Assembly: GCA_963810495.1 (NCBI GenBank)
Contig: CAWENP010000001.1
Location: forward strand, 72,990-136,989
Direction: 5' to 3'
Length of the DNA: 64,000 bases
Origin: an uncultured delta proteobacterium
GTDB lineage: Bacteria; Desulfobacterota; Binatia; Binatales; Binataceae
The notes below the pieces were generated by a model, which searched no databases, was not told where the DNA came from, and was given only the letters and a program-made list of their open reading frames with translations. This document shows positions 15,334-58,341 of the stretch, in pieces (positions within the stretch are counted from its first letter, which is position 1; the number at the start of each line of letters is the position of its first letter). A program made the position numbers and the translations under genes.

Positions 15334-15365
15334 CGCACTTCTCCTTGAAAAATTGGATTGCGGAT

Positions 15366-17446: not shown

Positions 17447-17470
17447 CGCTCTTCCTCCCTTGTGGCCGGA

Positions 17471-37146: not shown

Positions 37147-37235
37147 GGTTCCGCGCCGGTTGCGCGCGGAGACGGGGCTATTGCAAGATGGCCTGATGGC
37201 AACCTGGGCCCGGTGCCAATCTGAGGAGAAAACGA

Positions 37236-39765: not shown

Positions 39766-39835
39766 CGAATGCTCTCGCCCGTTGCCTCGTCCCGTCTCTA
39801 TTCAATGCGGCCGGCCGCCCGCGGGTTCCCCGGAC

Positions 39836-40828
39836 CTAACTGGAGAGCCGGGCACGATCGTGCGGCGCGCCGAAATCGATCGCCGGGCCCTTGGGCACGA
39901 TGCGAGTCGGGTTGATCATCGCGTGACTTGCATAATAGTGACGCTTGATATGCGCGAGGCTGACCGTCTCGGCGACACCGGGCACCTGGTAGAGATCACG
40001 CGTGTAACCCCATAGATTCGAGTAGTCAATGATGCGGCGCAAGTTGCATTTGAAGTGGCTATAGTAAACCGCGTCGAAACGCACCAGCGTGGGGAACAGC
40101 CGCCAGTCGGCCTCGGTCGCGCGACCGCCGAAGAGGTAGCGCTGGCGCGCCAGGCGCTGCTCGAGCCGATCGAGCGTCTCGAACAGCGGGTCGAAAACCG
40201 CCTCGTAGGCCTCCTGCGTTTTGGCGAAGCCGCACTTGTATACACCGTTGTTGACGGTGTCGTAAATGACAGCGTTGAGTTCGTCGATCTCCGCGCGCTG
40301 CGCCTGCGGATAGAGATCGTCGCCCGCGGCGCCCAGCGCGTTGAAGGCCGAATTGAACATCCGGATTATCTCGGACGACTCGTTGCTGACGATGGTCCCG
40401 GTCTCGCGGTCCCATAACACCGGCACCGTGACGCGTCCCGTGTAGTCGCGCCGAGCCTTGGTATAAACCTCGTGCAGGTAGCGCGCGCCGTTCAGATCAT
40501 CGCGCGTCGCGCCGGGTGTGAGCGACCCGTCCGGCGCGCTGAAGGCCCATCCGTCATCGCCCATGAACGGATCGACCACCGACACCGTGATCGCGTCGTC
40601 GAGCTTCTTCAGCTTGCGCACGATGAGCGTGCGATGGGCCCACGGGCAGGCGAGCGATACGTACAAGTGGTAGCGCCCGCGTTCGGCCTTGAAGCCGCCC
40701 TCCCCGCTCGGCCCGGGGCGGCCGTCGGCCGTCACCCAATTCCTGAACACGGTCTGCGGACGGACGAAATGGGCCCCCGCCGAGCGAAGGTCATCGCGCT
40801 GCCATTGGCCGTCGAGCATCATACCCAT
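39836..40828 (-). CDS. glutathionyl-hydroquinone reductase (YqjG/Xi-class GST)
   Basis: CPWAHRTLIVRKLKKL active-site motif; ~330 aa; start at MGMMLDGQWQ. Confidence 0.75.
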   Translation of the reverse strand: MGMMLDGQWQRDDLRSAGAHFVRPQTVFRNWVTADGRPGPSGEGGFKAERGRYHLYVSLACPWAHRTLIVRKLKKLDDAITVSVVDPFMGDDGWAFSAPDGSLTPGATRDDLNGARYLHEVYTKARRDYTGRVTVPVLWDRETGTIVSNESSEIIRMFNSAFNALGAAGDDLYPQAQRAEIDELNAVIYDTVNNGVYKCGFAKTQEAYEAVFDPLFETLDRLEQRLARQRYLFGGRATEADWRLFPTLVRFDAVYYSHFKCNLRRIIDYSNLWGYTRDLYQVPGVAETVSLAHIKRHYYASHAMINPTRIVPKGPAIDFGAPHDRARLSS

Positions 40829-40874
40829 CGCTGACTCCTTGCGTACGCCCCAGGAATCCTCCGATGATATTCCG

Positions 40875-41762
40875 ATGGGCCAAAGTCTCACAAACCCCGG
40901 CCTCGCAGGGCTGCAAGCGCTGCTCTACCGGCTGATCACGGCGCCCGAGGGCGTAGCCGCCGGTCTCGCCGCCGAACGCCCCGAGGTGCGCGCCGATTTG
41001 GACCATTTTATTGAGAGCGATGATCGCCTCTCCGCGACCGAGCGTCTCGAGATTTACGCCAACGCCTACTTCTACCGCATCCTGGACTGCCTGAAGGAGG
41101 ATTTCCCGGCGACGCTCGCAACGCTCGGCGCCGACGACTTCCACAACCTGGTCACCGGCTACCTGATCGAGTATCCGCCGACCGAACCTTCTATCTCTTA
41201 CGCCGGCCGCCATCTGGCCGAGTTCCTGCGCCACGATTCGATGCGGGCGATGATCGAACGATGGCCGTTCATCGCCGAGCTGGCGCGGCTGGAGCGGACG
41301 TTGATCGAGGTTTTCCATGCTGCGGAGGCCGAACCGTTGAACGCCGAAGCGATGCGTTCGGTCGCGCCTGAGGATTGGCCGGCGCTCGCGATGCGCACGC
41401 ATCCGGCGCTTGCGATCGTCGATTGCGAATGGCGCGTGGACGAGCTATTGCGCGAAGTCGAAGCCGCCGCGGGCGAAAGCGATCAAACCCATGACACGCC
41501 CGCGCATGCTCGTGGCGCGCCCACGCATGCGCCGGTCAGCGTGCTGGTGTGGCGGCACAACTCGCGTGTCCATTACCGCGCGTTGGAGCGCCCGGAGCGC
41601 GCGGCGCTCGAAGTCGCGAGCGCCGGCGCAAGTTTCGCGACGATATGCGAGACGGTTGCCGCGGCATGCGGCCAGGACGAAATGATTGCGCCGGTTGCGC
41701 TTATCAACCGGTTGCTTGAGCAATGGATCGCGGCGGGCCTGCTCGTCCTGGCGGACAAGTGA
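40875..41762 (+). CDS. DUF2063 domain protein (putative DNA-binding)
   Basis: ERLEIYANAYFYRILDCL...; first 62 codons of the ORF overlap the convergent GS-HQR gene, so start taken at the Met at 40875. Confidence 0.55.
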   Translation: MGQSLTNPGLAGLQALLYRLITAPEGVAAGLAAERPEVRADLDHFIESDDRLSATERLEIYANAYFYRILDCLKEDFPATLATLGADDFHNLVTGYLIEYPPTEPSISYAGRHLAEFLRHDSMRAMIERWPFIAELARLERTLIEVFHAAEAEPLNAEAMRSVAPEDWPALAMRTHPALAIVDCEWRVDELLREVEAAAGESDQTHDTPAHARGAPTHAPVSVLVWRHNSRVHYRALERPERAALEVASAGASFATICETVAAACGQDEMIAPVALINRLLEQWIAAGLLVLADK

Positions 41763-42207: not shown

Positions 42208-43839
42208 ATGGCAATCGTGAGGGGCGAGCAGATAATCGCACGCTGCTTAAGCAACGAAAAAGTCGACACGATCTTTTTCATGATGGGCGGACCGACCAGC
42301 GGCACCGCGGGCGCGTGCCTCGACCTCGGGATGAAGGGCATCTACGTACGCCACGAGCAGGCGGCGGCGATGATGGCGCACGCCTACGCGCGCGTCACGG
42401 GCAAACCGGGCGTCTGCATCACGCCGTCGGGACCCGGCACGGCCAACGCGCTCACGGGGCTCGCCAACGCGTGGGCCGACGCCACGCCGATAATCGCGAT
42501 TGGCGGTTCGGCGCCGATGCGCGCGACCACGCTCGACGCCTTCCAGGAGATGGACCAGGTCGCGATCATGAAGCCGGTGGTCAAGGCGGCCTACCGGGTC
42601 GACATGGCAAGCCGCATCCCGGAGTACATCAGCGTCGCGTTTCGTGAGGCGCTCGACGCCAAGAAGGGGCCGGTCTACCTCGACCTGCCCGGCGACATTC
42701 TAAATCACAAGGTCGACGACGAAAAACTCCTGTTCCCCGCCAACTACCGCGTCGAGAGCCGCCCCGCCGGCGACCCTGTGCAGGTGGAATGCGCAATCGA
42801 GTTGCTCGCCGGGGCCGAACGCCCGATCGTGGTTACCGGCAGCGGAGTGTTATGGTCGGGCGCGTCCGCCGAACTGCGCGACTTCATCGACAGCACCGGG
42901 TTGCCGTTTTACACCACGCCGCAGGGCCGCGGCGTGATACCCGAAGACCATCAGCGTTCGTTCCCGGGCGCGCGCTCGATGGCGTTTCGCGAGGCCGACG
43001 TGGTGCTGGTGGTGGGCGCGCGGGCGAATTCGATGCTCTCGTTTCTGCGCGCGCCGCGCTTTTCGCCCGGGGCCCGCTTCATCAGCGTCAACCTCGACGG
43101 CCGCGAGATCGGCCACAACCGCGGCGTCGAGGTCGGGATCATCGGCGACGCCAAGCTGGTTCTGCGCCAGTTGACGGAGGAGGCGGACGGCCGCTTCGAG
43201 GCGCATCGTGAGAGCGCGTGGGTCGCGCAGCTTAGCGCGAAGCATCGCTCCAACCAGGAGCGCTCGACGCCGTTGCTCCATTCCGACGCCGTGCCGATCC
43301 ATCCGCTGCGCCTGTGCCGCGAGGTTCGCGATCTGATCTCGCGCGACACCATCCTCATCGTCGACGGCCACGAGATTCTGAACTTCGCGCGCCAGTCGAT
43401 TCCGATCTACCAGGCCGGATGCAGCCTCAACGCGGGACCGCACGGATGTATGGGCGTCGGCGTGCCGTTCGGAATCGGCGCCAAGGTCGCCAGGCCCGAA
43501 GCGCCGGTGCTGGTGCTCTCGGGCGACGGCGCATTTGGATGGAACGGGATGGAGATGGACACGGCGATTCGCCATCAACTGCCGATTGTGGTGGTGATCT
43601 CGAACAACGCCGGCTTCACCTCGCGCAAGACCGGCGGCACGGTCGGGCGTGAGCTGGGATGGCAGCGCTACGACAAGATGGTCGAGGCGCTGGGCGGATA
43701 CGGCGAGTTCGTCGAGAAGCCCGAGGGCATCCGCGGCGCGATCGAGCGCGCGTTCAAAACCGGCAAGCCCGCGCTGGTCAACGTCTGCACCGACCCCGAG
43801 GCTCAGGCGACCACGGACATGGGGTTTGCGGGTTACTGA
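42208..43839 (+). CDS. thiamine-diphosphate-dependent enzyme (oxalyl-CoA decarboxylase / 2-hydroxyacyl-CoA lyase / acetolactate synthase-like)
   Basis: N-terminal Pyr domain (GVCITPSGPGTANALTGLANAWAD), C-terminal TPP-binding GDGAFGWNGMEMDTA...NN. Confidence 0.8.
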   Translation: MAIVRGEQIIARCLSNEKVDTIFFMMGGPTSGTAGACLDLGMKGIYVRHEQAAAMMAHAYARVTGKPGVCITPSGPGTANALTGLANAWADATPIIAIGGSAPMRATTLDAFQEMDQVAIMKPVVKAAYRVDMASRIPEYISVAFREALDAKKGPVYLDLPGDILNHKVDDEKLLFPANYRVESRPAGDPVQVECAIELLAGAERPIVVTGSGVLWSGASAELRDFIDSTGLPFYTTPQGRGVIPEDHQRSFPGARSMAFREADVVLVVGARANSMLSFLRAPRFSPGARFISVNLDGREIGHNRGVEVGIIGDAKLVLRQLTEEADGRFEAHRESAWVAQLSAKHRSNQERSTPLLHSDAVPIHPLRLCREVRDLISRDTILIVDGHEILNFARQSIPIYQAGCSLNAGPHGCMGVGVPFGIGAKVARPEAPVLVLSGDGAFGWNGMEMDTAIRHQLPIVVVISNNAGFTSRKTGGTVGRELGWQRYDKMVEALGGYGEFVEKPEGIRGAIERAFKTGKPALVNVCTDPEAQATTDMGFAGY

Positions 43840-43924
43840 GGCTGGTCACGCGATGAACTGAGAGGCGCGCGGGCAAATTCTGAACCCCTCGTGTTTTGGG
43901 GGGGGGTTAAAGTGGAGGTCAATC

Positions 43925-43962
43925 GAGGAAGCGCCATTTTCTAATTCCCGCGGCGCTTCCTC
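43925..43962. terminator. perfect 11-bp inverted repeat (gaggaagcgcc / ggcgcttcctc, 16-nt loop) between convergent genes, a candidate bidirectional terminator; a G9 homopolymer lies just upstream (43897-43905)
   Basis: Seen directly; no flanking U-run. Confidence 0.35.
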
Positions 43963-44002
43963 GAATCCTTTCACCGCAGTGCAGTCGCAATCGTTTACGA
44001 AC

Positions 44003-44893
44003 TCATCGCGCGCCCGTGCGGCGAGCCACCTCGAGCACGCGGCGCGCGCGCGTCAGATGCGGCACGTCGACCATCTCGCCGCGAAACGTGAACGCCATCC
44101 GCCCGGCCTTGCTGTTTTCCTCAAACGCCGCGAGCAGTTCCTCGGCGTCCGCGATCTCCTGCTTCGAGGGCGAAAAAACCTCGTTGACGATTTCGATCTG
44201 GCTTGGATGGATCGTAATTTTGCCGGTGAAACCCATCCAGGCGCCCTCGATACAATCGCGGCGGCATCCGTCGGGATCCTTGATATTGACAAACACGGTA
44301 TCGATCGGCTGCACCGCGGCCGCGGTGGCCGCGAGCAGCGTCATGATCCGCGCGTAGCGGAATACTTCGAGGAATTCGCCGCGTTCGTCGCGATTGCGCC
44401 GCGCGCCGATCGCCGCCGAAAGGTCCTCGGCGCCCCAGGACATGCTGTCGACGCGCGGATGCAGCCCGAGGTCCTTGATGTTGAGCAGACCCTGCGGCGT
44501 CTCGGTCGCAAGCAGCAGCAGCTTGACGCTGCGCTCGGGATAGCCGTACTGCTTCTCGAGGCCGCTCAGAATCGAATCGATCTTTTCCACGTCGGCGAAG
44601 GTCCGCACCTTGGGCACCATGTAGGAATCCGGCCGCCCCGCCATCGTGGCCTCGAGGTCGGCGACTCCCCACGGCGTCTCCAGCGGATTCATCCGCACCA
44701 TCCGCTCGCGCCCCTTGAAGTCGACCTTCTGCAGCCACTCGGTGACCGTCTTGCGCGCGGAGGCCTTGTTGTCGGGCGTGACCGAGTCCTCGAGGTCGAG
44801 CACCAGCGCGTCGGCCGGGAGATCGATCGACTTGGCCAGCATCTTGTCGTTGGCGCCGGGCACGAAATGCACGGCGCGGCGCAGCGTCTCCAT
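44003..44893 (-). CDS. HpcH/HpaI aldolase / citrate-lyase beta (CitE)-like acyl-CoA lyase (malyl/citramalyl-CoA lyase-like)
   Basis: VPGANDKMLAKSIDLPADALVLDLEDSV...; EGAWMGFTGKITIHPSQIEIVN. Confidence 0.75.
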   Translation of the reverse strand: METLRRAVHFVPGANDKMLAKSIDLPADALVLDLEDSVTPDNKASARKTVTEWLQKVDFKGRERMVRMNPLETPWGVADLEATMAGRPDSYMVPKVRTFADVEKIDSILSGLEKQYGYPERSVKLLLLATETPQGLLNIKDLGLHPRVDSMSWGAEDLSAAIGARRNRDERGEFLEVFRYARIMTLLAATAAAVQPIDTVFVNIKDPDGCRRDCIEGAWMGFTGKITIHPSQIEIVNEVFSPSKQEIADAEELLAAFEENSKAGRMAFTFRGEMVDVPHLTRARRVLEVARRTGAR

Positions 44894-44928
44894 AGTCGGC
44901 TACTCCAGATGTTCGCTTCGGCGCGCGG

Positions 44929-45396
44929 CTACTTGTTGGGCTTGCGCAGCATCATCGCTGCCCGCTTGCAGCGCATCACGGTCTCATTGCGCTGGTTGCG
45001 CGCGCGATGCTCGAGGATGACGATGCCCCAGTTGGGATGCGATTTCGACGGCCGCACCTCCAGCACTTCGCTCTCGGCGTAGAGCGTGTCGCCGATGAAT
45101 ACCGGTTTGGGAAATTCAACCTTCTCGAACCCCAGATTGCCGACCGTGGTGCCGAGCGTGAGGTCGCCGACCGAAAGGCCGACCGCCAGCCCGAGGGTGA
45201 AGATCGAGTTGACGAGGCGCTGGCCGAATTCGGCCTTTTTGCCGAACTCGGCGTCCAGATGCAGCGGCTGCACGTTCATTGTGAGCGTCGTGATCAGCAG
45301 GTTGTCGGTCTCGGTGACTGTGCGGCCGGGCTGATGCTGAAACGTTTCGCCGACTTTGAACTCTTCGAAATACTTGCCCATCGTGATCGCTCCCAA
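44929..45396 (-). CDS. MaoC-like (R)-specific enoyl-CoA hydratase/dehydratase
   Basis: Hot-dog fold MaoC pattern [33 protein letters not shown]. Confidence 0.75.
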
Positions 45397-45492
45397 CGCG
45401 AATATGCGCGAGTTTTTGCGTGCGCCGCCTGGCGCAGGCGCTCCGAATCATAGTCCAGGTGCGCGCCCGCAACCAGCCGCGCGCGAGTATGC

Positions 45493-47502
<2,010 letters not shown>

Positions 47503-47518
47503 GGCGATAGCCTGGGCG

Positions 47519-48370
47519 CTACACCTTGTCGATTATCTCAGCACGGAAGCGCTCGAGCTCCGAGCCCTCGAGCGCCTTGATCGGAAGCCCGGCAAGCGTG
47601 CGATCCACGCCGAGCTCGGCCATCCGGCGCACGTCGTCGGCCGTGAGCGGCTTGCCGGTGCGCAGGCTGAGCGTGATCTCGATCGGCCGCGTGCGCTCCG
47701 CCGCGCGCGCGTACTCACGCAGGCGCGAAATCAGCGTCCCCGCCTCGTCCAGGCTGTGCGCGATCCCGTACCATCCGTCGCCCAGCCGAACGGTGCGCTT
47801 GAGCGCGGGCTCGCTGGTGCCGCCGAAGACGATGGGTGGATGCGGCTGCTGGACGGTTTTGGGCATGAACTTCATCCCCTGGGTCGCAACCGTCTTGCCC
47901 TTGTAAAGCGGATCGCTCTTGCTCCACAGCTCGATCATCACCTCCAAGTACTCGCGAGTGCGCAGCGCGCGATCCTCGAACTTCATCCCCACCGCCTCGA
48001 ACTCCTCCTTGAGCCATCCGATACCGACGCCGAAGATGACGCGGCCCTGGCTCAGTTGGTCGAGCGTGGCGATCGCCTTGGCGGTGGCAAAGGCGTTGCG
48101 CAGCGGCACCACGAAGATGCCGGTGGCGAGGCGAATCTTCGTGGTCAGCGCGGCGACGTAGGCGAGCGTAAGCAGCGGATCGTGAAACGGCGCGTCAGGC
48201 GGCACGAGAAAGCGGCCGTCGGGCGTGTACGGATAGGCCGAGGTCTGCTTCACCGGCATGATCAGGTGCTCGGCGATCCAGGCCGACTCGAAACCGAGCT
48301 GCTCGGCCTGGCGCACGTCGGCGGCGATCGCCTCGCCGCGCTGCTTGGTGATGAAGGTGCCGAATTTCAT
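47519..48370 (-). CDS. LLM-class flavin/F420-dependent oxidoreductase
   Basis: MKFGTFI...[15 protein letters not shown]...VPL luciferase-like pattern. Confidence 0.7.
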
Positions 48371-48408
48371 GAGCGCGTACCTCGCCGCAAACTCGTCATG
48401 TAAATTGG

Positions 48409-49689
48409 CTAATAAATCGGCCCGAAAGCCGCGCGCGCATGGCGCTCGAGCGGCTCGCGAAAGTCCGGATGCGCGATCGCGATCAGCCGCCGCGCGCGTT
48501 CCTCCAGGCTCATGCCGCGCAGATGCGCCGCACCGTACTCGGTCGCCACGATATCGACGTCGGAGCGCGCCGTGGTCACGATCGGATCGTTCAGCGACGC
48601 CACGATCCGGCTGACCTTGCCGCTGCGCGCCGTCGCCGGCAGCGCGATTATCGATTTCCCGCCGCGCGAGCGCCGCGCCGCGCGCACATAGTCGACCTGG
48701 CCGCCGACCGCGCCGATATACGTTCCGCCGGCGACTTCGGCGTTGACCTGGCCGCTTAGGTCGACCTCGATCGCGGAATTGAGCGAGACGAATCCGTCGA
48801 TTCGCGCCAGTAGCTCGATCTTGTGCGTGACGCTGAGCGGCACGAGGCGCAAGGCGCGGTTGCGATGGGCGAAGTCGTACAGCTTTCGCGTGCCCAGCAG
48901 CGTCCCGGTGATGCTTGCGTCGCGATCGAACGGCTTGGTCTCGTTGGTCACCGCCCCCGACTTAATCAGATCCACCACGGCGTCGCTGAGCATCCCCGAG
49001 TGCAGCCCGAGCCGGCGATGGCTATGCAGGGCGTCGAGGATCGCGCACGGCATCGCACCGATTCCCATCTGGATTACCGCGCCGTCGGGCACCAACTCCG
49101 CGACCCCCCGCGCGATCCTTTTATCGATCTCGCTCGGCTCGCGCGTGGAATGCTCCAGCGGCGGACGCGAGCTGCGCACGAGATAGTCGACCCGCGCCAT
49201 ATCGAGCGGCTCGTCGGAGTAAGTCCACGGCAGTTGATCGTTGACCTGGGCAATCACCGTGCGCGCGCGGCGCATCGCGATTTTCAGATAGTCGTTAACA
49301 AGCCCCATGCTGTATTCGCCGGCACCATCGGCGGGCGGGCTCAGATGGAGCATCACTACGTCGGCTTTGAGGATGCCGCTATCGAACAGCGACTCGACGT
49401 CGGAAAGCTGGCAGGGGATGAGACGCAGCACGCCCGCGTCGACCAGGCGACGCCGGGTCCCTATAGCGCTCATCCCGAGAAACGTGAGGCAATCAGCATG
49501 CTCCGGTTGAAGCGTCTCCGAATATCCCGGCCCGAGAAATAGCGTGATCGGACCGATCGCGTGGCGCTGCGCGACCAGCGTCTCTGAGAGCGTCAGCGGC
49601 TCGGCCGCCCCTTGCGCCCAGACCACGGTGTCGCCGCGCCGGATATAGCGCGCAAGCTCAAGTTCTTCGGCTCGCAGTTCGATAGTCAT
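48409..49689 (-). CDS. acetyl-CoA hydrolase/transferase family protein (Ach1/Cat1-like CoA-transferase)
   Basis: Start MTIELRAEEL at 49689; two-domain CoA-transferase pattern. Confidence 0.7.
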   Translation of the reverse strand: MTIELRAEELELARYIRRGDTVVWAQGAAEPLTLSETLVAQRHAIGPITLFLGPGYSETLQPEHADCLTFLGMSAIGTRRRLVDAGVLRLIPCQLSDVESLFDSGILKADVVMLHLSPPADGAGEYSMGLVNDYLKIAMRRARTVIAQVNDQLPWTYSDEPLDMARVDYLVRSSRPPLEHSTREPSEIDKRIARGVAELVPDGAVIQMGIGAMPCAILDALHSHRRLGLHSGMLSDAVVDLIKSGAVTNETKPFDRDASITGTLLGTRKLYDFAHRNRALRLVPLSVTHKIELLARIDGFVSLNSAIEVDLSGQVNAEVAGGTYIGAVGGQVDYVRAARRSRGGKSIIALPATARSGKVSRIVASLNDPIVTTARSDVDIVATEYGAAHLRGMSLEERARRLIAIAHPDFREPLERHARAAFGPIY

Positions 49690-49795
49690 CGTGAAAAGTG
49701 AAAAGCGGCGTGGCAACGGCTGGACGAGAGGCTCCTGCGAGAGGTCCGGTGTTTCGCGATAAGTTCTAACCGATGCGCTTGCTCGGCCAGCGGCG

Positions 49796-50233
49796 CTAAC
49801 CGGCGGACGAGGTCGCGGTCCGCTTGCGGCGGTCGGGCCGGCGACGCGGCCGTGCGGAAATCGCCCGCTGGGGTATCCGCAACGGACGCGTCTGGCGCTC
49901 AACCGGTATTCCGGGCGTTGGCGGAGGCGGCGCGGGTGGCGGATCCAACCGCGCCTCGTCCTGCATCAAGAGAAAGAAGAACATGTTGGCGAGCACGATC
50001 TTGGTGAGTCCGATAACCGATACCAGCGCCGCCACCAGCACCCACTTCGAGGAGTCGTGGCCGAGCCATCCAGTCTTCACCCCGACACCCAGCGTCGCAA
50101 CGGCCGCCACGATGATGACGCCCATCCCGATCGACGCCGGCACCATCGATTTGCGCCAGAACGCCTCGGCCGAGTACGGATTAACCGCGGCGTTTAGCGG
50201 TCGCCGGCGCTGGAGCGGAATGACGATTGCCAC
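49796..50233 (-). CDS. hypothetical small membrane protein with Pro-rich tail
   Basis: 145-aa ORF with 2 TM segments. Confidence 0.25.
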   Translation of the reverse strand: MAIVIPLQRRRPLNAAVNPYSAEAFWRKSMVPASIGMGVIIVAAVATLGVGVKTGWLGHDSSKWVLVAALVSVIGLTKIVLANMFFFLLMQDEARLDPPPAPPPPTPGIPVERQTRPLRIPQRAISARPRRRPDRRKRTATSSAG

Positions 50234-50445
50234 GTTCTACCCCGTCGATGTTTTATGCTCCACTGCGCGGCGAGGCGCAAGCGGCGGGATGGGATTCGTC
50301 GCCGCAGGACTGAAGCGCTCCACAGGCTCGCCGCTGGGTGAAAAAGCCTTTGCCTCCTCGCGCAATAAAGTCTAGACAGGATGCGGGGTGAATTCAGTGA
50401 ATCCATAGACCCGCGACCGGGGAGTCCGAAACGGAGGGCAGTACG

Positions 50446-51468
50446 ATGAAGTTCGGTGTGATGTACGACTTTCGTAATCCGAAACAGTGGCGGCGTCCCT
50501 TTCCGGAATTGTACGCAACGATGATCGATCAGGCCGCGATGCTCGACGAACTCGGCTATGACAACGTGTGGCTGACCGAGCATCATTTCGTCGACGACGG
50601 CTACAATCCGGCGGTGCTGCCAACGGCCGCGGCGATCGCCGCGCGCACCAAAAAAATCCGCATCGGGACGTTCGTGCTGCTACTGCCGTTCCATAACCCG
50701 GTGCGCGTCGCCGAAGACGCCACCTGCGTCGACATTATCTCCAACGGACGCTTCGACCTTGGTATCGGACAGGGTTACCGTGCCGAGGAGTTTGCGGCGT
50801 TCAAGCAGCCGCGGCCCGAGCGCTCGGCCCGCCTGGCCGAGGGCGTCGAGCTTATCCGCCGGCTGTGGACCGAGGAGCGGGTCACCTTCGAAGGCAAGTT
50901 CAATCACGTTGAAGCGATGGAGTTATATCCCAAGCCCGTGCAGCAGCCGCACATACCGATCTGGATCGGCGCGCGGACCGACAAGGCCGCCCGCCGCGCC
51001 GCCCGGCTGGGCCATCATCTGCTCGCCACGATCGGGCCCGATCCCGCGATCCCGTATCGCGACGAACTCAAGCTGCTCGGCCGCGACCCGGCGAAATTTT
51101 CGATCGCGCAATTGCGGGTCGTTTACGTCGCCGAATCGGCCGACCGCGCCTGGCGCGACGTCCAGGATCATCTGAACTACATGATGGGCGAGTACGCGAT
51201 GTGGCTGGGCGAAGCCAACGACGTGGCCGGCGACAAGACGGTATGGGAGCTGAAGCGTCCCGAGGACCTGCGCACGTCGCCGTATGCCGAGCACATGATG
51301 GTCGGTACGCCTTCGGAGTGTATCGCGAAGTTCAAGGCCTTCAGCCGCCAGTACGCCTGCACGCATTTCATCATGGCGACGCCGCTGCCCGGGATGGACC
51401 CGGCCAAGGCGCGCCGTTCGCTGGAGATGTTCGCGCGCGAAGTGCGCCCCCATCTGGAGGGACTCTGA
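50446..51468 (+). CDS. LLM-class flavin-dependent oxidoreductase (luciferase-like monooxygenase)
   Basis: MKFGVMYDF...LGYDNVWLTEHHF... Confidence 0.75.
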   Translation: MKFGVMYDFRNPKQWRRPFPELYATMIDQAAMLDELGYDNVWLTEHHFVDDGYNPAVLPTAAAIAARTKKIRIGTFVLLLPFHNPVRVAEDATCVDIISNGRFDLGIGQGYRAEEFAAFKQPRPERSARLAEGVELIRRLWTEERVTFEGKFNHVEAMELYPKPVQQPHIPIWIGARTDKAARRAARLGHHLLATIGPDPAIPYRDELKLLGRDPAKFSIAQLRVVYVAESADRAWRDVQDHLNYMMGEYAMWLGEANDVAGDKTVWELKRPEDLRTSPYAEHMMVGTPSECIAKFKAFSRQYACTHFIMATPLPGMDPAKARRSLEMFAREVRPHLEGL

Positions 51469-51526
51469 TTTCGCCGCTCATGTTGGAAACCGATTTGCCT
51501 CAATTTCAACCCTGACGAGGTACCAG

Positions 51527-52594
51527 ATGGATTTCGGATGTGTGTTCTTCGCCAGCCCCGAGGCTTACAAGGATGCCGCGCTGGCCGAGCGGCTGGGCTT
51601 CTCGCACGGCTGGCTTTACGATTCGCAGATGCTCGGCAGCGACGTGTATGCGGCGCTCGCACTGTGCGCGGTCAATACGCGCCGGCTCATCATCGGCCCG
51701 GGCGTGACCAATCCGCTCTCGCGGATCGCGCCGGTCACCGCCTGCGCGATCGCGACGATCAACGCGCTCGCGCCCGGCCGCGTGGTGCTCGGAATCGGCA
51801 CCGGCAACACGGCCCGGCGCACGCTTGGGATGCCGGCCGCGCGGGTCGACCAGATGCGCGAACATATCGAGATCTGCCGCGGCCTGCTGAAGGGCGAAAC
51901 CGTCCCCTACCAGGAAGGCGAGCGGCATCGGATGATCAAGTTTCTCAATCCCGGCGGCGGCTATATCAACATCCGCAAGAAGGTGCCGATTTACGTCGCC
52001 GCGAGCGGGACGCGCAGTCTGGAGATGGCGGGTGAAATCGCGGACGGCGTGATCCTGTTCGGCGCCGTGGGGCCGAGCCTGATCAACTTCGTGATGGACC
52101 GCGTGCGCGTCGGAGCCGAGCGCGCGGGACGCAAACTCTCGAGCATCTACACGCTCTGCATGACCGCCTTTCATCTGACGCGCCCCGGCCAGAAACTCGA
52201 ATCGACGCAGGTGCGGCGCGCCGTGGGGCCGTTTGTCGCATCATCGTCGAACATCTTCGCGCTGGCCGCGCCCGACAAGAGCGATCTGCCCTCGGACCTG
52301 CGCGACGACATCACCAAGTTCGCCGCCGCCTACAAGGTCGAGAACGAGCCCGCCGAGACGCGCCATCTCAAGCTCTACGCGGGCTACCTGCGCGGCTTCC
52401 GCAAGGAACACGAGGCGCTGGTGACGGAGCGGATGATTCGCGCGACCACGCTTACCGGAACGCGCGAGGAGATCGTCGATTCGATCTGCGCGATGAAGAA
52501 GGCGGGCATCCGCCAGGTCGCGATCCAGCCGATCGTGGACAATCGCACGACGCTGCAGACTTTCTCGCGCGAGATTATCAAGGCGATGCGCTAG
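51527..52594 (+). CDS. LLM-class F420/flavin-dependent oxidoreductase (methylene-H4MPT reductase-like)
   Basis: MDFGCVFFASPEAYKDAALAERLGFSHGWLYDSQML... Confidence 0.75.
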   Translation: MDFGCVFFASPEAYKDAALAERLGFSHGWLYDSQMLGSDVYAALALCAVNTRRLIIGPGVTNPLSRIAPVTACAIATINALAPGRVVLGIGTGNTARRTLGMPAARVDQMREHIEICRGLLKGETVPYQEGERHRMIKFLNPGGGYINIRKKVPIYVAASGTRSLEMAGEIADGVILFGAVGPSLINFVMDRVRVGAERAGRKLSSIYTLCMTAFHLTRPGQKLESTQVRRAVGPFVASSSNIFALAAPDKSDLPSDLRDDITKFAAAYKVENEPAETRHLKLYAGYLRGFRKEHEALVTERMIRATTLTGTREEIVDSICAMKKAGIRQVAIQPIVDNRTTLQTFSREIIKAMR

Positions 52595-52881
52595 TGTAAC
52601 GCCTCATTAATAAGTTGCATAAGAAGACTTGTGATCCTGCGCGAAGGGGCAGCCTCGGTTCAGGATGACGGAGCACGGCCGGTACGAAATGGCCTCCGCC
52701 GGACCGCCGCGGCTCCGACATGCTTTTGCCCCGCAGCGGCAAAAATCTGTCTCTGCGGCGAGTCACCCCACACCTGCGCCCAAATAGAGCCGCTTCTGAA
52801 GTGAGTTTCCCGATTTTGCAGGTCTAGCCCGAGAGCGGTCTGAAAGTTGCTCCTGTTGTGAGACAGGGACGGAATCTCCGT

Positions 52882-54366
52882 ATGCATCGAATATTGATCG
52901 TTGAGGACAATCCGGTCGACCAGCGGCTGTTCGAGCAGGCGCTCAGCGACCCTACGCGCGAAATCGAAATCTGCAGCGACGGGCGCGAGGCGCTGGCCGC
53001 CTTCGAGCGCCGCGCCGCCGACCTGGTGATCTCGGACATCATGATGCCCAACATGGAGGGCAACGAGCTGCTCACCGAGCTGCATCGCCGGGTGCCCGGC
53101 CTGCCGATCATCCTGGTCACCCGCTTCGGCAGTATCTCGGCGGCGGTGTCGGCAATGCAGGCCGGCGCGTTTGACTACGTCACCAAGCCGGTGGAGGTGT
53201 TCGAGTTACAGACCCGGGTGAAGCGGGCGCTCGAGCTGGACCAGCTCCATCACGAAAATGACACTCTGCGCCAGGAGCTCGCCGGGCGCTTCGGCCCCGA
53301 CTCGGTGGTCGCCGAAAGTATCGAGAGCCGCAAGCTGATGGAACTGGTGCGGCGGATCGCGGCCAGCCATTCCACGGTGCTGATCCAGGGTGAGAGCGGC
53401 ACGGGCAAGGAGCTGGTCGCGCGGCTGGTGCATTATTGGAGCGACCGGGTTGGCCGTCCGTTTGTCGCGGTCAATTGCAAGGCCTTCGCCGAGAGCGTGC
53501 TCGAGAGCGAACTGTTCGGCCATGAGAAAGGCGCCTTCACCGGCGCTATCGCGGCGCGCCAGGGATGCTTCGAGCGGGCCTCGGGCGGCACGCTGCTGCT
53601 CGACGAGATCGGGGATATCAGCCCCGAATTCCAAGCCAAGCTGCTGCGCGTGCTGCAGGAGGGCGAAGTGCTGCGGGTCGGCGGTTCCGAGCCGCGGCGG
53701 ATCAACGTGCGCGTGGTGGCGGCGACCAACAGCTCGCTCCAGGACAAGGTCGCGGCGGGCCGCTTTCGCGAGGACCTTTATTTCCGGCTCAACGTCATTC
53801 CGATCCAGCTCCTGCCGCTGCGCGAGCGGCGCGAGGACATCCTGGCGCTGGCGCGCAATTTTCTGGCCCGGATGGCGGCCGAGGCCGGGCGTCATATGAC
53901 GCTCGACTCGGAGGCTGCGGAGATGCTGCTTCGGCACTCGTGGCCAGGCAACGTGCGGGAGCTCGAAAACGCGATCGAACGGGCCGTGGTTCTCACCCGC
54001 GCCGACGCTATCACCGCCGCGGACCTGATGCTTGATCGGGTCGGCGGATCGCCGCCGGCTTCTGCGGCAAGCAGCGTGCCCGCCGACAATTCCGCTCTCG
54101 CGCCGGCGCCGGAGATAAACGAGGCGGACTTGCGGGCTCGCCGCGCGACCGCATTGGAGGAAAGCGGAGACGTCGGGCTTAGCGAATATCTCGACAAGGC
54201 GGCCGGCGAGCGAATCGCGCGCGCGCTGGCCAAGGCCAAGGGCAATCGAGCCGAGGCCGCACGCAGCCTCAGGATCGGCCGCGCGACGCTGTACCGCTTC
54301 ATGCGGCGGCTGGGTAACGAATCCATCGGCGAGCGGCGCGCGCATGAGCCGGGGGAACAGCAATAG
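52882..54366 (+). CDS. sigma-54-dependent response regulator (NtrC family: receiver + AAA+ + HTH)
   Basis: Receiver D residue context (LVISDIMMPNMEG), GESGTGKE Walker A, GAFTGA sigma54-interaction motif, ESELFGHEKGAFTGA, C-terminal HTH. Confidence 0.85.
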   Translation: MHRILIVEDNPVDQRLFEQALSDPTREIEICSDGREALAAFERRAADLVISDIMMPNMEGNELLTELHRRVPGLPIILVTRFGSISAAVSAMQAGAFDYVTKPVEVFELQTRVKRALELDQLHHENDTLRQELAGRFGPDSVVAESIESRKLMELVRRIAASHSTVLIQGESGTGKELVARLVHYWSDRVGRPFVAVNCKAFAESVLESELFGHEKGAFTGAIAARQGCFERASGGTLLLDEIGDISPEFQAKLLRVLQEGEVLRVGGSEPRRINVRVVAATNSSLQDKVAAGRFREDLYFRLNVIPIQLLPLRERREDILALARNFLARMAAEAGRHMTLDSEAAEMLLRHSWPGNVRELENAIERAVVLTRADAITAADLMLDRVGGSPPASAASSVPADNSALAPAPEINEADLRARRATALEESGDVGLSEYLDKAAGERIARALAKAKGNRAEAARSLRIGRATLYRFMRRLGNESIGERRAHEPGEQQ

Positions 54367-54874
54367 CTCGCGCGCGACCTCGGGCGCCACGCCCGAGACA
54401 GGCGAAGAAAAAGTCACGGAGCAAATTACGGAGCAAATTACGGATGACGGCCCTGTCAGCGAAGGCACTGTCAGCCGCGCCCGGATCGATCGCTTGCGCA
54501 ACTCGATGCCCGGCAAGGACGCCCTTATCGACGAGTTGATCGATCTCTTTGTCGCCGACCTGCCCAGACGGCTCGGCGCGATCACACAGGCCATCGAGCG
54601 CGCCGACGCGCCGGCCCTTGCGCTGCAAGCCCATGCGTTGCGCGGCGGCGCGGCCAACTTCGGCGCCGGCCGTCTCGACGAGCTATGCGGCAAGCTCGAA
54701 GAGATCGGAGTGCGCGGCACACTCGCGGAGGCGGCTGCGATGCTCGACGCGCTCGAGCGCGAAAGCGCGCGGGTGCGCGACGCGCTGCTGGCGCTTAGGT
54801 CGCAACATCCCGCTACGCCGCCGGGCGCGCGCCGCGGCGCTCAGAAGTCCAGCGGCAGCTCGAGAAAGTTGTGA
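54344..54874 (+). CDS. Hpt (histidine phosphotransfer) domain protein; start uncertain (possibly the Met at 54506)
   Basis: LQAHALRGGAANFGAGRL is a classic Hpt motif; overlaps the end of the regulator. Confidence 0.5.
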   Translation: MSRGNSNSSRATSGATPETGEEKVTEQITEQITDDGPVSEGTVSRARIDRLRNSMPGKDALIDELIDLFVADLPRRLGAITQAIERADAPALALQAHALRGGAANFGAGRLDELCGKLEEIGVRGTLAEAAAMLDALERESARVRDALLALRSQHPATPPGARRGAQKSSGSSRKL

Positions 54875-55614
54875 TAGATGAAGTCGCGATGCTCGAGCAG
54901 GATGGGCGCGGTGGCGCCCTTGATCGTCGGATCCGTGTTCGTGTACACGCTCCTGAACCCCGGCGCCATTGGACATAGCTCGTCGGGCAGCGGGTTGTTC
55001 ATCGCTGCGAAGGTCGCCCAATAGATGTCGAGCGCGGTGAGCGCGTCGCCGATGAAAAACCGGCTGCCGCGCTTGCGCTGCGCTTCCAGCCGGGCGGTGA
55101 GCGCGTGCAGAATTCCCGCGATCCGCGCCGGTGCGGCCTCGGCTGCCGTCTTGTCATAGCCGTACTTGTTGGCCAGGTAGTTGAAGAGCCGGCGCCCGGC
55201 CTCGTTGGGATTCCCGAGGCCATCGCGGATGATCATCAGCCGCTTCGACCATCCGAATCCGTTCGCGCCGCATATTTCGTTGGCGTAGCCGAACATCAGG
55301 ACGCGATCCTCGAGGTTGGCCGGAACCAGCGGCGGATTGGACTGGAGCCGCTCGGCCAGGTTGAGTTGGTCGTTCCAGAGACTGCGCGGCCATTCTTCGT
55401 TCCAGACCATGACGGGAGCGCTCGCCTGCGCGGTCCACTCCAGCAGCGCGCGATTCTCGCCGCCCAACTCCTGGCGCACCTTCACATAGGGGAGTTTCTT
55501 GACGTGAAGCACGCCCTTGGCCGCCTCGCTCCATGGTCCCGGCACTCCGGGCGTCAGCACCAACCGCAGGCCCGACATCGCACGCGCCCGCTCTACTTCG
55601 ATATATTCCGCCAT
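54841..55614 (-). CDS. glutathione S-transferase-like family protein
   Basis: Thioredoxin-like N-terminus LVLTPGVPGPWSEAAKGVLHVKKLPYVKV; weak. Confidence 0.4.
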   Translation of the reverse strand: MAEYIEVERARAMSGLRLVLTPGVPGPWSEAAKGVLHVKKLPYVKVRQELGGENRALLEWTAQASAPVMVWNEEWPRSLWNDQLNLAERLQSNPPLVPANLEDRVLMFGYANEICGANGFGWSKRLMIIRDGLGNPNEAGRRLFNYLANKYGYDKTAAEAAPARIAGILHALTARLEAQRKRGSRFFIGDALTALDIYWATFAAMNNPLPDELCPMAPGFRSVYTNTDPTIKGATAPILLEHRDFIYHNFLELPLDF

Positions 55615-55793: not shown

Positions 55794-56282
55794 CTAGTAG
55801 CTGATCACCATCTGTGCCGAACTCGAGAGCGGCAGGGTCACCGAGGCAAACGGATAAAACGGATGATAGCTATACGCGACACTGACGCTCACCACTTGTC
55901 CGGGTGCGTTATTTCCGGTTGGGCCGGGACATTGGTTGGGCGGAGTTTGGGGATTCCAGCAGGAGGTAACGGTTATCGAGCTGGGATTAAGGCCCTGCGC
56001 TTCGTTGCGCACGTAGGTCTGGATGTCGTCCGAGCTGGCCGGCGACGTGCTCTTGGAGCCGTGGACAATCGCGTAGCGGACGGCGTCGCGCGCGGCGTTG
56101 GAGAGAAAGCTCCAGGTATAAATCGTCATCGCGAAACTGATGATGCCGAATATGAGCGACAGCGCCGGCAGCACCACCATCATGAATTCGGCGAAGGTCT
56201 GTCCGCGCGACCATCCGATCCAGGAGCGTGTCGGACGAACGTGGCGCGACGCACTCCGCAACATTTTATCGTGTGACTTCAC
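55794..56282 (-). CDS. TadE-like pilus assembly protein
   Basis: GQTFAEFMMVVLPALSLIFGIISF N-terminal motif. Confidence 0.65.
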   Translation of the reverse strand: MKSHDKMLRSASRHVRPTRSWIGWSRGQTFAEFMMVVLPALSLIFGIISFAMTIYTWSFLSNAARDAVRYAIVHGSKSTSPASSDDIQTYVRNEAQGLNPSSITVTSCWNPQTPPNQCPGPTGNNAPGQVVSVSVAYSYHPFYPFASVTLPLSSSAQMVISY

Positions 56283-56749
56283 GACGTTCCCTTCTGCGCT
56301 TGCATCACCGCGACGGAACTCAGCGGGATGTTATTGGGGAGGCCCCAGATCAACCCGGTTTGGAAGGTCGCGCTGGTCGTAACCTTGACGAAGACCTTGG
56401 GTTCGGTGCAAGTCGAGGGCGGCGCGGCGCAGGAGACGACACAGGCGGACGCCTGCGCGGGACTGCATTGCGCGCCGTCGCACATGCAGAAGTGCGTCGG
56501 GGTGACCGAGAGCCCGCTGATATTTTTACCGTCGTTGTCCGCGGCCAGAGTCATGCCGGAGTTGTCGATCGCCTTTACGTAGCTCTGCGCTCCGTACTGA
56601 ACCCCGGCCCGCGCGGCGCTGGCAACGCCCATCGCTACGTAAAACACGCGCGCAAACTCACAAACCACGAACAGCAGAACCGCGAGAAATGGCAGCCCTA
56701 AAGCCAACTCGACCGCGCTTTGCCCCCTCGCCATTTTCCGTAAAGTCAT
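56279..56749 (-). CDS. TadE-like pilus assembly protein
   Basis: ARGQSAVELALGLPFLAVLLFVVCEFARVFY N-terminal motif. Confidence 0.65.
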   Translation of the reverse strand: MTLRKMARGQSAVELALGLPFLAVLLFVVCEFARVFYVAMGVASAARAGVQYGAQSYVKAIDNSGMTLAADNDGKNISGLSVTPTHFCMCDGAQCSPAQASACVVSCAAPPSTCTEPKVFVKVTTSATFQTGLIWGLPNNIPLSSVAVMQAQKGTS

Positions 56750-56768
56750 ACCCGTATATTCCTCCCTC

Positions 56769-58055
56769 TTATTCGACCAGCGCCGCGTCCTTGATCAGCG
56801 ACCCGTTGGCAAGACAACTGAAGTTGTTACCGACGGTGGAATTGCCGAGGAAACTCAGCGTATCGGAGACCAGCAGCGTGAACATGTTGGCGGTGGTGTT
56901 CCCGGCGTACGAGAGAGAGGTCGTCGGAAAATAGATCGCACCGCCGAAGGTCGACCCCGCCCCGCCGTTGATTGTGCTTCCGTTGTTGGCCGTCGCCGTT
57001 ATGGAGCGGTCTTGAAAGAACAGCATCCCCGCGATGCTGCCGCCCGAGGAGGTGCATGGCGAACTCAGGTTCACGGTTGCATTGCTGTTGATTGTGAGCC
57101 CGCCATAGCCTGAGTTGCCGTTTCCGTTGGTACCGGTCAGGTAGAAGGTCACATCGCTGCCAGAGACGGTGCCGCTGTTGATTTGAATTCCACCGCCGTC
57201 GATGACGTACAGGCCGCGGCTAAAGGTAACCGTGTTCCCGCCTGTAATCTGGATGCCCCCGCAATACGTTTGGGGGCTTTGGGCTCCACTGAGCTTCTGG
57301 CCGCTAAACTTGGTACAAGGGCTAAACGTCGGAGCCGGAATGTAGGCCAGCGGATCGCCGAACTGCGCGATACCCGTCGAGGGAGGCGAACTGCCGCCGC
57401 CGGCGATGGTCGTTCCACCGACCACACCGACCAGCGGCGCGGTAATGGCTCCCCCGCCGTGAACTATCAGCGCCGAGGAACTATCCGAATTGACGTACAG
57501 GCCGCACGCCGAACTGACGCTCGCGGTACCGCCCACGTCCACCGCTCCCGACACCGACGGATCAAGCGAGTATATGCACGAGCCCGATCCGAGCGTCACC
57601 GCGACCGCGGCGGTGGAAACCGGGACCGCCTGCCATCCGAGCACCTTCATGAAATAAGTGGGCTGGCTCTGCGAGACGTCGACCTCGACCGCGTTGGAAT
57701 TGGCGGCAAAGGGTCCGGACGTGGGAGGATTGTGGACCGCCACGGTTATAGTGTTCGAGGTGCCCGGACGAGTGCCGCCGTCGGCGAAGCCGTTGTGCGA
57801 AGCGGCATCCTTGGCGGCTGCGGTTATGGCGGTGCTGCTGCCCCCGATTGCGATTTCGTCGGCTCCGGCCACCGCCCCTGCGTCCGCCGCGCTTTGCATC
57901 AGCCGCCTGGTGGTCCAAAGGTCTCCGACATCAACCGCCAGGGCGGCCATCCCGAGCAGCACGACAAGAGCGATACTCAGCAGCAGGAATGTCTGGCCGC
58001 AGCGCTGGCGCGCAAGCCGCCGTGGCAGAGATGCAACATCGATGCGCCAAGTCAT
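56769..58055 (-). CDS. TadG-like (Tad N-terminal domain) pilus assembly protein with a long Gly/Ser/Thr-rich beta-repeat body
   Basis: GQTFLLLSIALVVLLGMAALAVDVGDLW...SAADAGAVAGA; ATG at 58055. Confidence 0.65.
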   Translation of the reverse strand: MTWRIDVASLPRRLARQRCGQTFLLLSIALVVLLGMAALAVDVGDLWTTRRLMQSAADAGAVAGADEIAIGGSSTAITAAAKDAASHNGFADGGTRPGTSNTITVAVHNPPTSGPFAANSNAVEVDVSQSQPTYFMKVLGWQAVPVSTAAVAVTLGSGSCIYSLDPSVSGAVDVGGTASVSSACGLYVNSDSSSALIVHGGGAITAPLVGVVGGTTIAGGGSSPPSTGIAQFGDPLAYIPAPTFSPCTKFSGQKLSGAQSPQTYCGGIQITGGNTVTFSRGLYVIDGGGIQINSGTVSGSDVTFYLTGTNGNGNSGYGGLTINSNATVNLSSPCTSSGGSIAGMLFFQDRSITATANNGSTINGGAGSTFGGAIYFPTTSLSYAGNTTANMFTLLVSDTLSFLGNSTVGNNFSCLANGSLIKDAALVE

Positions 58056-58341
58056 GCGTTTCCCCTCCGCTGATCGAAATGATGCGTCGCTAATGCCAAC
58101 GTTAGAAGAGCGTAGCGAATTCGAAAGCCATGTCGCAGACAGTGTTGAGCAAAAACCAAGCCGCGCGCGCCAACGAATCAAAGAGGGTCGAAAAACAGCC
58201 AAAGATTACCTTCAACCTTTTGACGCGCGGCTCCGCTTGTCCTCGGCTTTGGCGAGACCAAACGAATCAATTTGCCTTTTCACCGCATTTGCAGTTATTG
58301 ACGCACAGGCGCGCGAAAACCACCTTCGAGGAGACCGAGCG

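Follow-up and report, generated by a model that had tools for sequence, protein, structure and literature searches.

An acetoacetate-linked gene island in the Binataceae, possibly for the catabolism of short-chain acyl-CoA esters

We analyzed 64,000 nucleotides (hereafter the window) of contig CAWENP010000001.1, from an uncultured delta proteobacterium of the Binataceae, and focused on a group of acyl-CoA enzyme genes at positions 42208-54874. We propose, with a probability of about 40%, that these genes form a catabolic island for short-chain acyl-CoA esters, made of two modules that can be separated and have acetoacetate as a common metabolite. The first module, which is invariant, would comprise a small membrane protein, a CoA-transferase of the 4-hydroxybutyrate (4HB)/RipA type, a luciferase-like oxidoreductase (LLM) and an acetoacetate-CoA ligase (acetoacetyl-CoA synthetase, AACS), all transcribed from a conserved sigma-70-type promoter. 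The second, usually adjacent, would comprise a MaoC hydratase together with a CitE-like lyase and sometimes a convergent thiamine diphosphate (ThDP) enzyme of the 2-hydroxyacyl-CoA lyase (HACL) type. The proposal is grounded in the gene families, the identity of the AACS, the Mg-ligand residues of the lyase, the pattern of synteny and the promoter motif. From these we reason on the substrates, the direction of the flux, the role of the LLM and any link with the neighboring NtrC-family regulator and Hpt protein.

Layout and conservation of the island

The order of transcription on the minus strand is small protein, CoA-transferase, LLM-A, AACS, MaoC and CitE. The operon is headed by a gene for a small membrane protein of 145 aa (49796-50233), conserved in related loci. 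The next three genes encode a class I CoA-transferase, which belongs to the 4-hydroxybutyrate-CoA-transferase/RipA subfamily (48409-49689; AcetylCoA_hyd_C, 180 bits), LLM-A, a luciferase-like oxidoreductase of the putatively F420-dependent TIGR03619 family (47519-48370; 240.2 bits), and AACS (45493-47502; TIGR01217, 959 bits). The spacing is 38 nt between the CoA-transferase and LLM-A and 16 nt between LLM-A and AACS. Then come a single-domain MaoC protein of the (R)-specific enoyl-CoA hydratase type (44929-45396, with a probable start at 45381; MaoC_dehydratas and MC_hydratase) and a CitE-like acyl-CoA (beta-hydroxyacyl-CoA) lyase (44003-44893; HpcH_HpaI, 156 bits). The gene convergent with CitE, at 42208-43839 on the plus strand, encodes an accessory ThDP enzyme with all three TPP domains, which belongs to the group of 2-hydroxyacyl-CoA lyases/synthases and oxalyl-CoA decarboxylases. 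On the other side of the operon, also on the plus strand, two further luciferase-like oxidoreductases are accessory: LLM-B, divergent from the operon (50446-51468; Bac_luciferase, 215 bits), and the Mer-like LLM-C (51527-52594; Bac_luciferase, 161 bits). They precede an NtrC-family sigma-54-dependent response regulator with a REC-AAA+-HTH_8 architecture (52858-54366, probable start at 52882; Sigma54_activat, 226.7 bits) and an Hpt phosphotransfer protein of uncertain start (54344-54874; Hpt domain, 53.5 bits), both on the plus strand.

A first-pass annotation of this DNA had named the ThDP, CitE-like, MaoC, AACS and CoA-transferase enzymes, the three LLMs, the NtrC-family activator and the Hpt protein, and profile matches find every one of them where it had placed them. 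Its statement that the enzymes lie within 8 kb needs correction, since the span of enzyme genes from ThDP to LLM-C is about 10.4 kb. Its start for the CoA-transferase, at 49902, gives way to 49689, which alignment with 426-aa homologues makes the most likely one, and the small membrane-protein gene (49796-50233, minus strand) had been missed. The assignment of the CoA-transferase to the Ach1/Cat1 family does not hold either: it scores 279 bits with 4-hydroxybutyrate CoA-transferase and 221 with RipA, versus about 60 with Ach1/Cat1-type proteins. An open reading frame (ORF) at 43979-45082 on the plus strand was discarded as a gene because it matches no family and CitE overlaps it on the opposite strand.

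The small protein matched no Pfam family. The alignment apparently shows two hydrophobic helices, followed by a C-terminal tail that is basic and rich in Pro and Arg. Its gene always comes first in the CoA-transferase-LLM-AACS operon and was found only in loci of the Binataceae type. The protein could be an accessory for transport or sensing.

We gathered related loci, labeled here with L and a number, in three ways: by an exact look-up of homologues, by a scan of species-representative genomes with an alignment of the CoA-transferase and by a scan of metagenomes with the small protein as a marker. The window proteins were placed in each collected locus by tblastn. This resulted in about 40 related contigs, of which 15 loci are informative downstream of AACS and 19 reach far enough for the regulator. 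The instances of the cluster with a taxon label are all from Binataceae or from metagenome-assembled genomes (MAGs) labeled "uncultured delta proteobacterium." The gene arrangement recurs in these related Binataceae contigs and is not a chance juxtaposition. Its invariant unit has the genes for Hpt and the NtrC-type regulator upstream of, and divergent from, those for the small protein, the CoA-transferase, LLM-A and AACS. The regulator is upstream of the operon in all 19 loci of sufficient extent, Hpt is co-conserved with it, and the four operon genes keep their order, with the small protein 41-95% and the CoA-transferase 65-95% identical. Of the 15 loci informative downstream of AACS, 13 have MaoC there, 11 have CitE and 9 have the convergent ThDP gene. 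LLM-B and LLM-C are restricted to closer relatives, being absent from the divergent loci L003, L004, L127, L129 and L132. Because MaoC, CitE, ThDP and LLM-B/C vary while the core is invariant, the island is modular, with a stable core and accessory blocks. This is what the cluster of the first-pass annotation amounts to.

Several loci depart from the layout of the window. L099, whose DNA is about 92% identical to that of the window, loses all similarity where AACS ends; the genes beyond are unrelated, among them those for an HNH endonuclease and RNase E/G. The junction between AACS and MaoC is occupied in L119 by a serine-recombinase element (L119:10015-12193), which encodes a DUF2924 protein and a large serine recombinase. 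The remainder of that contig matches L118 at 99.5% identity. We had considered L119 as a case of MaoC-CitE loss and rejected this in favor of the insertion of a mobile element at that junction. The most divergent loci, L003 and L132, have an extra LLM between AACS and MaoC and lack CitE. At the other end of the island, L012 and L099 carry an insertion of 3.4-4.4 kb that parts the NtrC gene from LLM-C and the operon (L099:3813-7580; L012 about 2700-6900). The insertion in L099 codes for a protein of 1255 aa that has zinc-ribbon, adenylate/guanylate-cyclase and AAA_16 domains.

A possible acetoacetate-yielding pathway

AACS passes the TIGR01217 equivalog model (958.7 bits, for a cut-off of 521) as well as NF002937 (992 bits, for a cut-off of 639). 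It is so far above the cut-offs that acetoacetate is very likely a metabolite of the pathway. Its neighbor LLM-A passes TIGR03619, a model annotated as F420-dependent (240.2 bits, cut-off 166.9), and LLM-B is slightly under the same cut-off with 160.9 bits. No close relative of LLM-A was found among solved or characterized proteins, the best being Mer with 66 bits. Its Binataceae paralogues (about 65% identical) have unrelated surroundings that contain FHA, kinase and PHP genes, for which reason we rejected a wider association of LLM with the CoA-transferase. Judging by these comparisons, LLM-A is a lineage-specific recruit.

The core could also be a unit of its own. In this alternative, which we think somewhat unlikely, the core and its AtoC-like regulator and Hpt protein would serve the use of C4 ketone bodies or polyhydroxybutyrate monomers, and MaoC, CitE and the ThDP enzyme would be unrelated neighbors. 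For example, and with the same reservation, the LLM could oxidize 3-hydroxybutyrate to acetoacetate, AACS could activate the latter, and the CoA-transferase could act on C4 acids. F420-dependent LLMs include secondary-alcohol dehydrogenases, and LLM-A, besides passing TIGR03619, is encoded 16 nt from AACS. The invariance of only the CoA-transferase-LLM-AACS unit and the NtrC/Hpt pair speaks for such a separation, as do the break in L099 and the serine-recombinase insert in L119, and the top model match of the regulator is AtoC, the controller of acetoacetate metabolism. Yet the score of this match (441 bits, far under the cut-off of 714) is barely over that of NtrC (416 bits, cut-off 559), the sigma-54 promoter expected for such a regulator was not found in the scans described below, and no thiolase gene was found adjoining the unit. 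Furthermore, MaoC follows AACS in 13 of the 15 informative loci, the most divergent included.

What could the second module do? The best named model for MaoC is RipB_Ich (NF038241), with 150.7 bits and below the cut-off of 340, and its best solved relative is a protein of the mesaconyl-CoA hydratase type (108 bits). In these comparisons it resembles dicarboxylyl-CoA hydratases (Ich, Mch) and not PhaJ; the latter reading is weak, with 26-32 bits versus 108 for Mch-type proteins. For the lyase, the named models are citE (TIGR01588; 201 bits versus a cut-off of 443) and then RipC_Ccl (NF038242; 149.2 versus 375). We discarded a true citrate lyase beta subunit, given that TIGR01588 is not reached and that citD and citF were not found among the ORFs scanned. 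Compared with solved structures, the lyase scores 161 bits with CLYBL, 149 and 136 with Mcl, 104 with Rv2498c, 89 with RipC and 79 with 8KHL ("acyl-CoA lyase beta chain"). It has the HpcH_HpaI fold, and its residues R67, E131 and D157 align with R64, E112 and D138 of Rv2498c. Glu112 and Asp138 are the Mg ligands of Rv2498c (PMC6689899). In a rough neighbor-joining tree, the protein belongs to a tight clade of its own, outside CLYBL, Mcl, Rv2498c/RipC and the two types of CitE that usually flank homologues of the island CoA-transferase.

This clade extends well beyond the Binataceae. Homologues of the lyase with 73-77% identity occur in Methylomirabilota, Thermodesulfobacteriota and other Binatia. 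Four such loci (L092-L095) encode, in this order, an Amidohydro_1 protein, MaoC-CitE, a fusion of an HMG-CoA (3-hydroxy-3-methylglutaryl-CoA) synthase-like domain with DUF35 (HMGCS::DUF35) and a thiolase. The thiolase of this type of cluster passes NF004810 (494 bits, cut-off 403). The orthologous MaoC-CitE pairs of other phyla have no adjoining CoA-transferase; in Binataceae, the pair is placed behind CoA-transferase, LLM and AACS instead. Literature searches returned no published function or description of the HMGCS::DUF35-MaoC-CitE cluster. The cluster is highly conserved, and the same four loci (L092:6137-13130 and its counterparts in L093-L095) also carry DUF1329/DUF1302 genes, a Haem_oxygenase_2-like protein, a 258-aa protein of unknown function, an SSF transporter and sometimes an SDR.

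A second source of context is the CoA-transferase itself. We surveyed 85 loci with a homologue of about 50% identity, from Proteobacteria, Actinobacteria and a MAG of Alicyclobacillaceae. The genes near the homologue include family III CoA-transferases (49 of the 85 loci), enoyl-CoA hydratases (45), CitE-like genes (40), acyl-CoA dehydrogenases (37), NMO-type flavoenzymes (15) and MaoC orthologues with 57-66% identity (14). About 40 of the 85 loci, among them L009, L017, L029, L043, L048 and L054, have neighborhoods of the type NMO-CitE-CoA-transferase-CoA_transf_3-acyl-CoA dehydrogenase-MaoC. Two distinct CitE subtypes flank the CoA-transferase homologues in these neighborhoods, and none of the CitE and MaoC neighbors tested there reaches the RipB or RipC cut-off. 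In L005/L006:8001-14964, one gene string encodes a CoA-transferase with 54% identity, a regulator of the TetR type, acyl-CoA dehydrogenase, enoyl-CoA hydratase and HMG-CoA lyase enzymes, and a homologue of AACS (59% identical to that of the window). No carboxylase genes were found in the string, which may be a 3-methylglutaryl/HMG-type route.

These results bear on the reading favored by the first-pass annotation, in which the CoA-transferase, MaoC and CitE follow the logic of the RipABC or Ict-Ich-Ccl systems and degrade itaconate, mesaconate or citramalate (C5 dicarboxylates) to acetyl-CoA and pyruvate, with the ThDP enzyme, AACS and LLMs widening the substrate range. We consider this unlikely, even if part of it stands. 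The families are the right ones, matching RipA, RipB and RipC, and the CoA-transferase reaches 221 bits with RipA. RipB_Ich is the top named model for MaoC and RipC_Ccl the second one for CitE. Among solved proteins, the lyase is closest to CLYBL, which we take to be a citramalyl-CoA lyase. Neighborhoods of CoA-transferase with CitE, sometimes with MaoC, are also widespread in the survey above, so the trio does recur. On the other hand, the scores of MaoC and CitE are under half of the equivalog cut-offs, the lyase is outside the Rv2498c/RipC branch, and the orthologous MaoC-CitE pairs adjoin HMG-CoA-synthase-like and thiolase genes, without a CoA-transferase. The trio of the island is interrupted, its members being neither contiguous nor inseparable. 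Finally, the itaconate pathway yields no acetoacetate, and would therefore leave an invariant and bona fide AACS unexplained.

We link the MaoC-CitE pair, or its CoA-transferase, to acetoacetate and acetoacetyl-CoA because of three independent contexts: the AACS in the core, the thiolase and HMG-CoA-synthase-like neighbors of the orthologous pair, and the analogous string of CoA-transferase, acyl-CoA dehydrogenase, enoyl-CoA hydratase, HMG-CoA lyase and AACS. AACS and the HMGCS/thiolase neighbors point to acetoacetate/HMG-CoA-type chemistry at least as much as to itaconate. Hence, we read the island as a sequence of CoA transfer, (R)-specific hydration, lyase cleavage and salvage by AACS. The CoA-transferase would activate a free short-chain hydroxy, oxo or (branched) dicarboxylic acid by CoA transfer, and the LLM of the first module would perform one redox step. 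LLM-A may replace the acyl-CoA dehydrogenase of the proteobacterial clusters, or oxidize a hydroxy acid, e.g., 3-hydroxybutyrate to acetoacetate. MaoC would hydrate a branched enoyl-dicarboxylyl-CoA, either 3-methylglutaconyl-CoA or itaconyl/mesaconyl-CoA, to a beta-hydroxyacyl-CoA of the (R)-HMG-CoA or (S)-citramalyl-CoA type. The CitE-like lyase could then release acetyl-CoA together with acetoacetate from a C6 substrate, or with pyruvate from a C5 one, and AACS would re-activate the freed acetoacetate with ATP. Substrates with six carbons (3-methylglutaconate, HMG) would account for AACS, and those with five (itaconate, mesaconate, citramalate) could be a second activity. There are precedents for the cleavage, since Rv2498c and PA0883 cleave (R)-HMG-CoA and Rv2498c also cleaves (S)-citramalyl-CoA (PMC6689899).

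Several observations weigh against this proposal. AACS is the only enzyme of the cluster at a curated equivalog threshold, and scores do not establish the substrates of the others. The clade of the lyase holds no characterized member, and LLM-A is without an assigned step in the pathway. MaoC and CitE are not adjacent to the core in L099, and CitE is absent from L003 and L132, so the two modules need not act together. Neither an isovaleryl-CoA dehydrogenase nor a methylcrotonyl-CoA carboxylase was found among the approximately 45 larger ORFs of the window that were scanned. Moreover, HMG-CoA synthase makes the (S)-isomer, and the known CitE-type lyases take the (R)-isomer.

The ThDP enzyme raises a further question: does it participate in the pathway? 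Its best solved relatives are the bacterial HACL and 2-hydroxyacyl-CoA synthases (HACS; 8VZ*, 350-375 bits, full length), followed by oxalyl-CoA decarboxylase (294 bits) and actinobacterial HACL (260 bits). It is below all NCBIfam equivalog cut-offs (557-739), with 380 and 360 bits for oxalyl-CoA decarboxylase and 344 for actinobacterial HACL. One could imagine that the CoA-transferase makes both regio-isomers of citramalyl-CoA, that CitE cleaves the C4 ester to acetyl-CoA and pyruvate, and that the C1 ester, a 2-hydroxy-2-methylacyl-CoA, is cleaved by the HACL-type enzyme to formyl-CoA and acetoacetate, the latter salvaged by AACS. The closeness of the enzyme to bacterial 2-hydroxyacyl-CoA lyases/synthases and the adjacency of its gene to CitE in 9 of the 15 loci fit such a route, which would also explain why an AACS is found beside a citramalyl-type module. 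We nevertheless regard it, as a whole, as very improbable. AACS is kept where the ThDP gene is absent (L001, L003, L099), the ThDP gene is convergent and thus not co-transcribed with the operon, and a dicarboxylyl-CoA would be a novel substrate, as we know of no HACL that accepts one. A broader version is a long shot too: an undescribed Binataceae pathway for branched hydroxy-dicarboxylates that yields acetoacetate, in which an F420- or flavin-dependent LLM would replace the acyl-CoA dehydrogenase, the HACL-type enzyme would cleave dead-end citramalyl-C1-CoA to formyl-CoA and acetoacetate, and MaoC-CitE would represent a new cross-phylum clade of HMG-CoA/citramalyl-CoA-type lyases.

Regulation and the wider window

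The regulator has an AAA+ Sigma54_activat domain and an intact GAFTGA loop, as enhancer-binding proteins do, and should therefore act on sigma-54 promoters. The candidate phospho-accepting His of the Hpt protein, assigned by eye, is in an HALRGG stretch. The first-pass annotation had suggested sigma-54 promoters upstream of 49902, 47502 and 50446, but neither a consensus scan, a matrix scan nor a comparison of 40 loci revealed them. When up to two mismatches are allowed, the consensus TGGCAC-N5-TTGC is matched neither in 49903-50445 nor upstream of 42208, and the whole window has 58 matches versus 66 expected from shuffled sequence. A second scan, with an approximate position-weight matrix that we wrote from the published consensus, gave no site of conserved position, be it in the window, L001, L003 or L004. 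Its two best matches near the cluster (48085, plus strand; 50693, minus strand) fall within coding sequence, and L001 shares the layout of the window but has no match above the threshold. Nor do the regions upstream of the small ORF, aligned over 40 loci, contain a sigma-54 site at a conserved position. A generic scan for promoters and terminators gave no excess over chance, and no Rfam family or tRNA was found within the window, so that no riboswitch explanation is available.

What is conserved upstream of the small ORF is a different motif. TTGC(G/A/T)(C/T)-N17-CATAA(A/G) occurs 47-126 nt before this ORF in 39 of the 40 loci, with a spacer of exactly 17 nt, and persists where the surrounding intergenic DNA no longer aligns. 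In the window it reads TTGCGC-N17-CATAAA (50252-50280, minus strand). The motif has the signature of a sigma-70-type promoter, as far as its sequence indicates. A second conserved block, CTTTATTGCNNNNNNNNGCAAAG (CTTTATTGC-N8-GCAAAG; window 50300-50345, with equivalents in L001 and L012-L014), was found only in loci with LLM-B. It probably belongs to the promoter of LLM-B, or may be an operator. The adjacency of the regulator and the operon is conserved, but the sequence has no sign of a control of these genes by the regulator. The practical lesson: a sigma-54 activator adjoining an operon is no evidence of control over that operon.

The rest of the window includes, at 2951-18139 on the minus strand, genes for a RepB primase with a TrbL-like region, VirB4-like and VirB11-like ATPases, a type IV coupling protein, a MobA/VirD2 relaxase, TrbI/VirB10, CagX/VirB9 and VirB8. 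This set is probably an integrated conjugative element or its remnant. The GC content falls to 0.51-0.57 at 18-24 kb, just downstream of it. Some 24 kb separate the conjugative set from the acyl-CoA island, and the flanks of the latter show synteny with those of other Binataceae. Between them are two di-haem DHOR genes (21698-23185 and 24036-24869), PPK2 (26827-27696), an ABATE/CGNR regulator (31952-32593), PPK1 (33288-35570), two tandem DUF1329 genes (35791-38699) and DUF3179, GST and HvfC-like genes (38749-41762). The island is followed by genes for a conserved 257-aa protein (54841-55614), TadE/TadG pilus proteins (55794-58202) and HrcA (58877-59935).

Comparison with known systems

The families and the logic of the island are known. 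In the searchable literature we found no description of the combination of a small membrane protein, a 4HB/RipA-type transferase, an LLM, AACS and MaoC-CitE, with or without HACL, and the Binatota genome paper has no mention of F420, luciferase, itaconate, acetoacetate or leucine. If our proposal is true, the island would join RipABC/Ict-Ich-Ccl and the mycobacterial Rv2498c system as a third design by which branched C5/C6 dicarboxylyl-CoA esters are cleaved, and one that couples cleavage to the ATP-dependent salvage of acetoacetate and to an LLM oxidoreductase. It would also give a first metabolic handle on the Binataceae, an abundant uncultured soil lineage. Since the MaoC-CitE clade is 73-77% conserved over several phyla and uncharacterized, one enzyme assay would annotate thousands of genes.

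The RipABC system of Yersinia and Salmonella and the Ict-Ich-Ccl system of Pseudomonas and Cupriavidus share with the island a RipA-like CoA-transferase of the AcetylCoA_hydro type, a single-domain MaoC and a CitE-like lyase, together with the logic of activating, hydrating and cleaving. Unlike the clusters of saprophytes (PMC12290011), the island is without a gene for an acyl-CoA dehydrogenase or for MmgE/PrpD. The island further differs from RipABC/Ict-Ich-Ccl in that its MaoC and CitE are below the cut-offs, its lyase is outside the RipC/Rv2498c branch, and its trio is not a contiguous unit, being interrupted by LLM-A and AACS, and is separable.

In Mycobacterium tuberculosis, we take the genomic neighbors of Rv2498c to run to Rv2504c, with Rv2499c being MaoC-like and Rv2503c/Rv2504c presumably being ScoAB acting on acetoacetate. 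Rv2498c, an (S)-citramalyl-CoA/(R)-HMG-CoA lyase, is CitE-like as is the island lyase, and it frees acetoacetate from (R)-HMG-CoA (PMC6689899). Itaconyl-CoA hydratase activity has been shown for Rv2499c, and itaconate:succinyl-CoA transferase activity for Rv2503c (PMC11789021). However, Rv2498c is only 34% identical to the island lyase, and the island activates acetoacetate with an ATP-dependent ligase, not with ScoAB. It also adds an LLM and a small membrane protein, and no genes for isovaleryl-CoA dehydrogenase or carboxylase were found nearby. No solved relative of the lyase scores higher than human CLYBL (161 bits, 38% identity), and the C-terminal Asp of the xMxDxP stretch aligns between the two; in contrast, CLYBL branches off deeply and separately in the tree, and it is an enzyme of eukaryotic mitochondria without a comparable operon context.

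In Escherichia coli, AtoSC and atoDAEB place an NtrC-family regulator beside genes that take acetoacetate to the CoA level. The NtrC-family regulator of the island likewise adjoins acetoacetate-activating genes and has AtoC as its top model match. It differs in that this match remains far under the cut-off (441 versus 714), an Hpt protein takes the place of an AtoS-type kinase, no sigma-54 promoter was found in our scans, and the CoA-transferase is from a different family than AtoDA. No AtoS-type kinase, AtoDA-type transferase or thiolase was found among the window ORFs scanned. The ThDP enzyme aligns over its full length with HACL/HACS and oxalyl-CoA decarboxylase, but it is under the equivalog cut-offs and outside the invariant core. 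In the cross-phylum cluster of L092-L095, the partners of the pair are a thiolase and an HMG-CoA-synthase-like complex instead of CoA-transferase, LLM and AACS, and it is there that the true orthologues of the MaoC and CitE of the window are found, at 73-77% identity.

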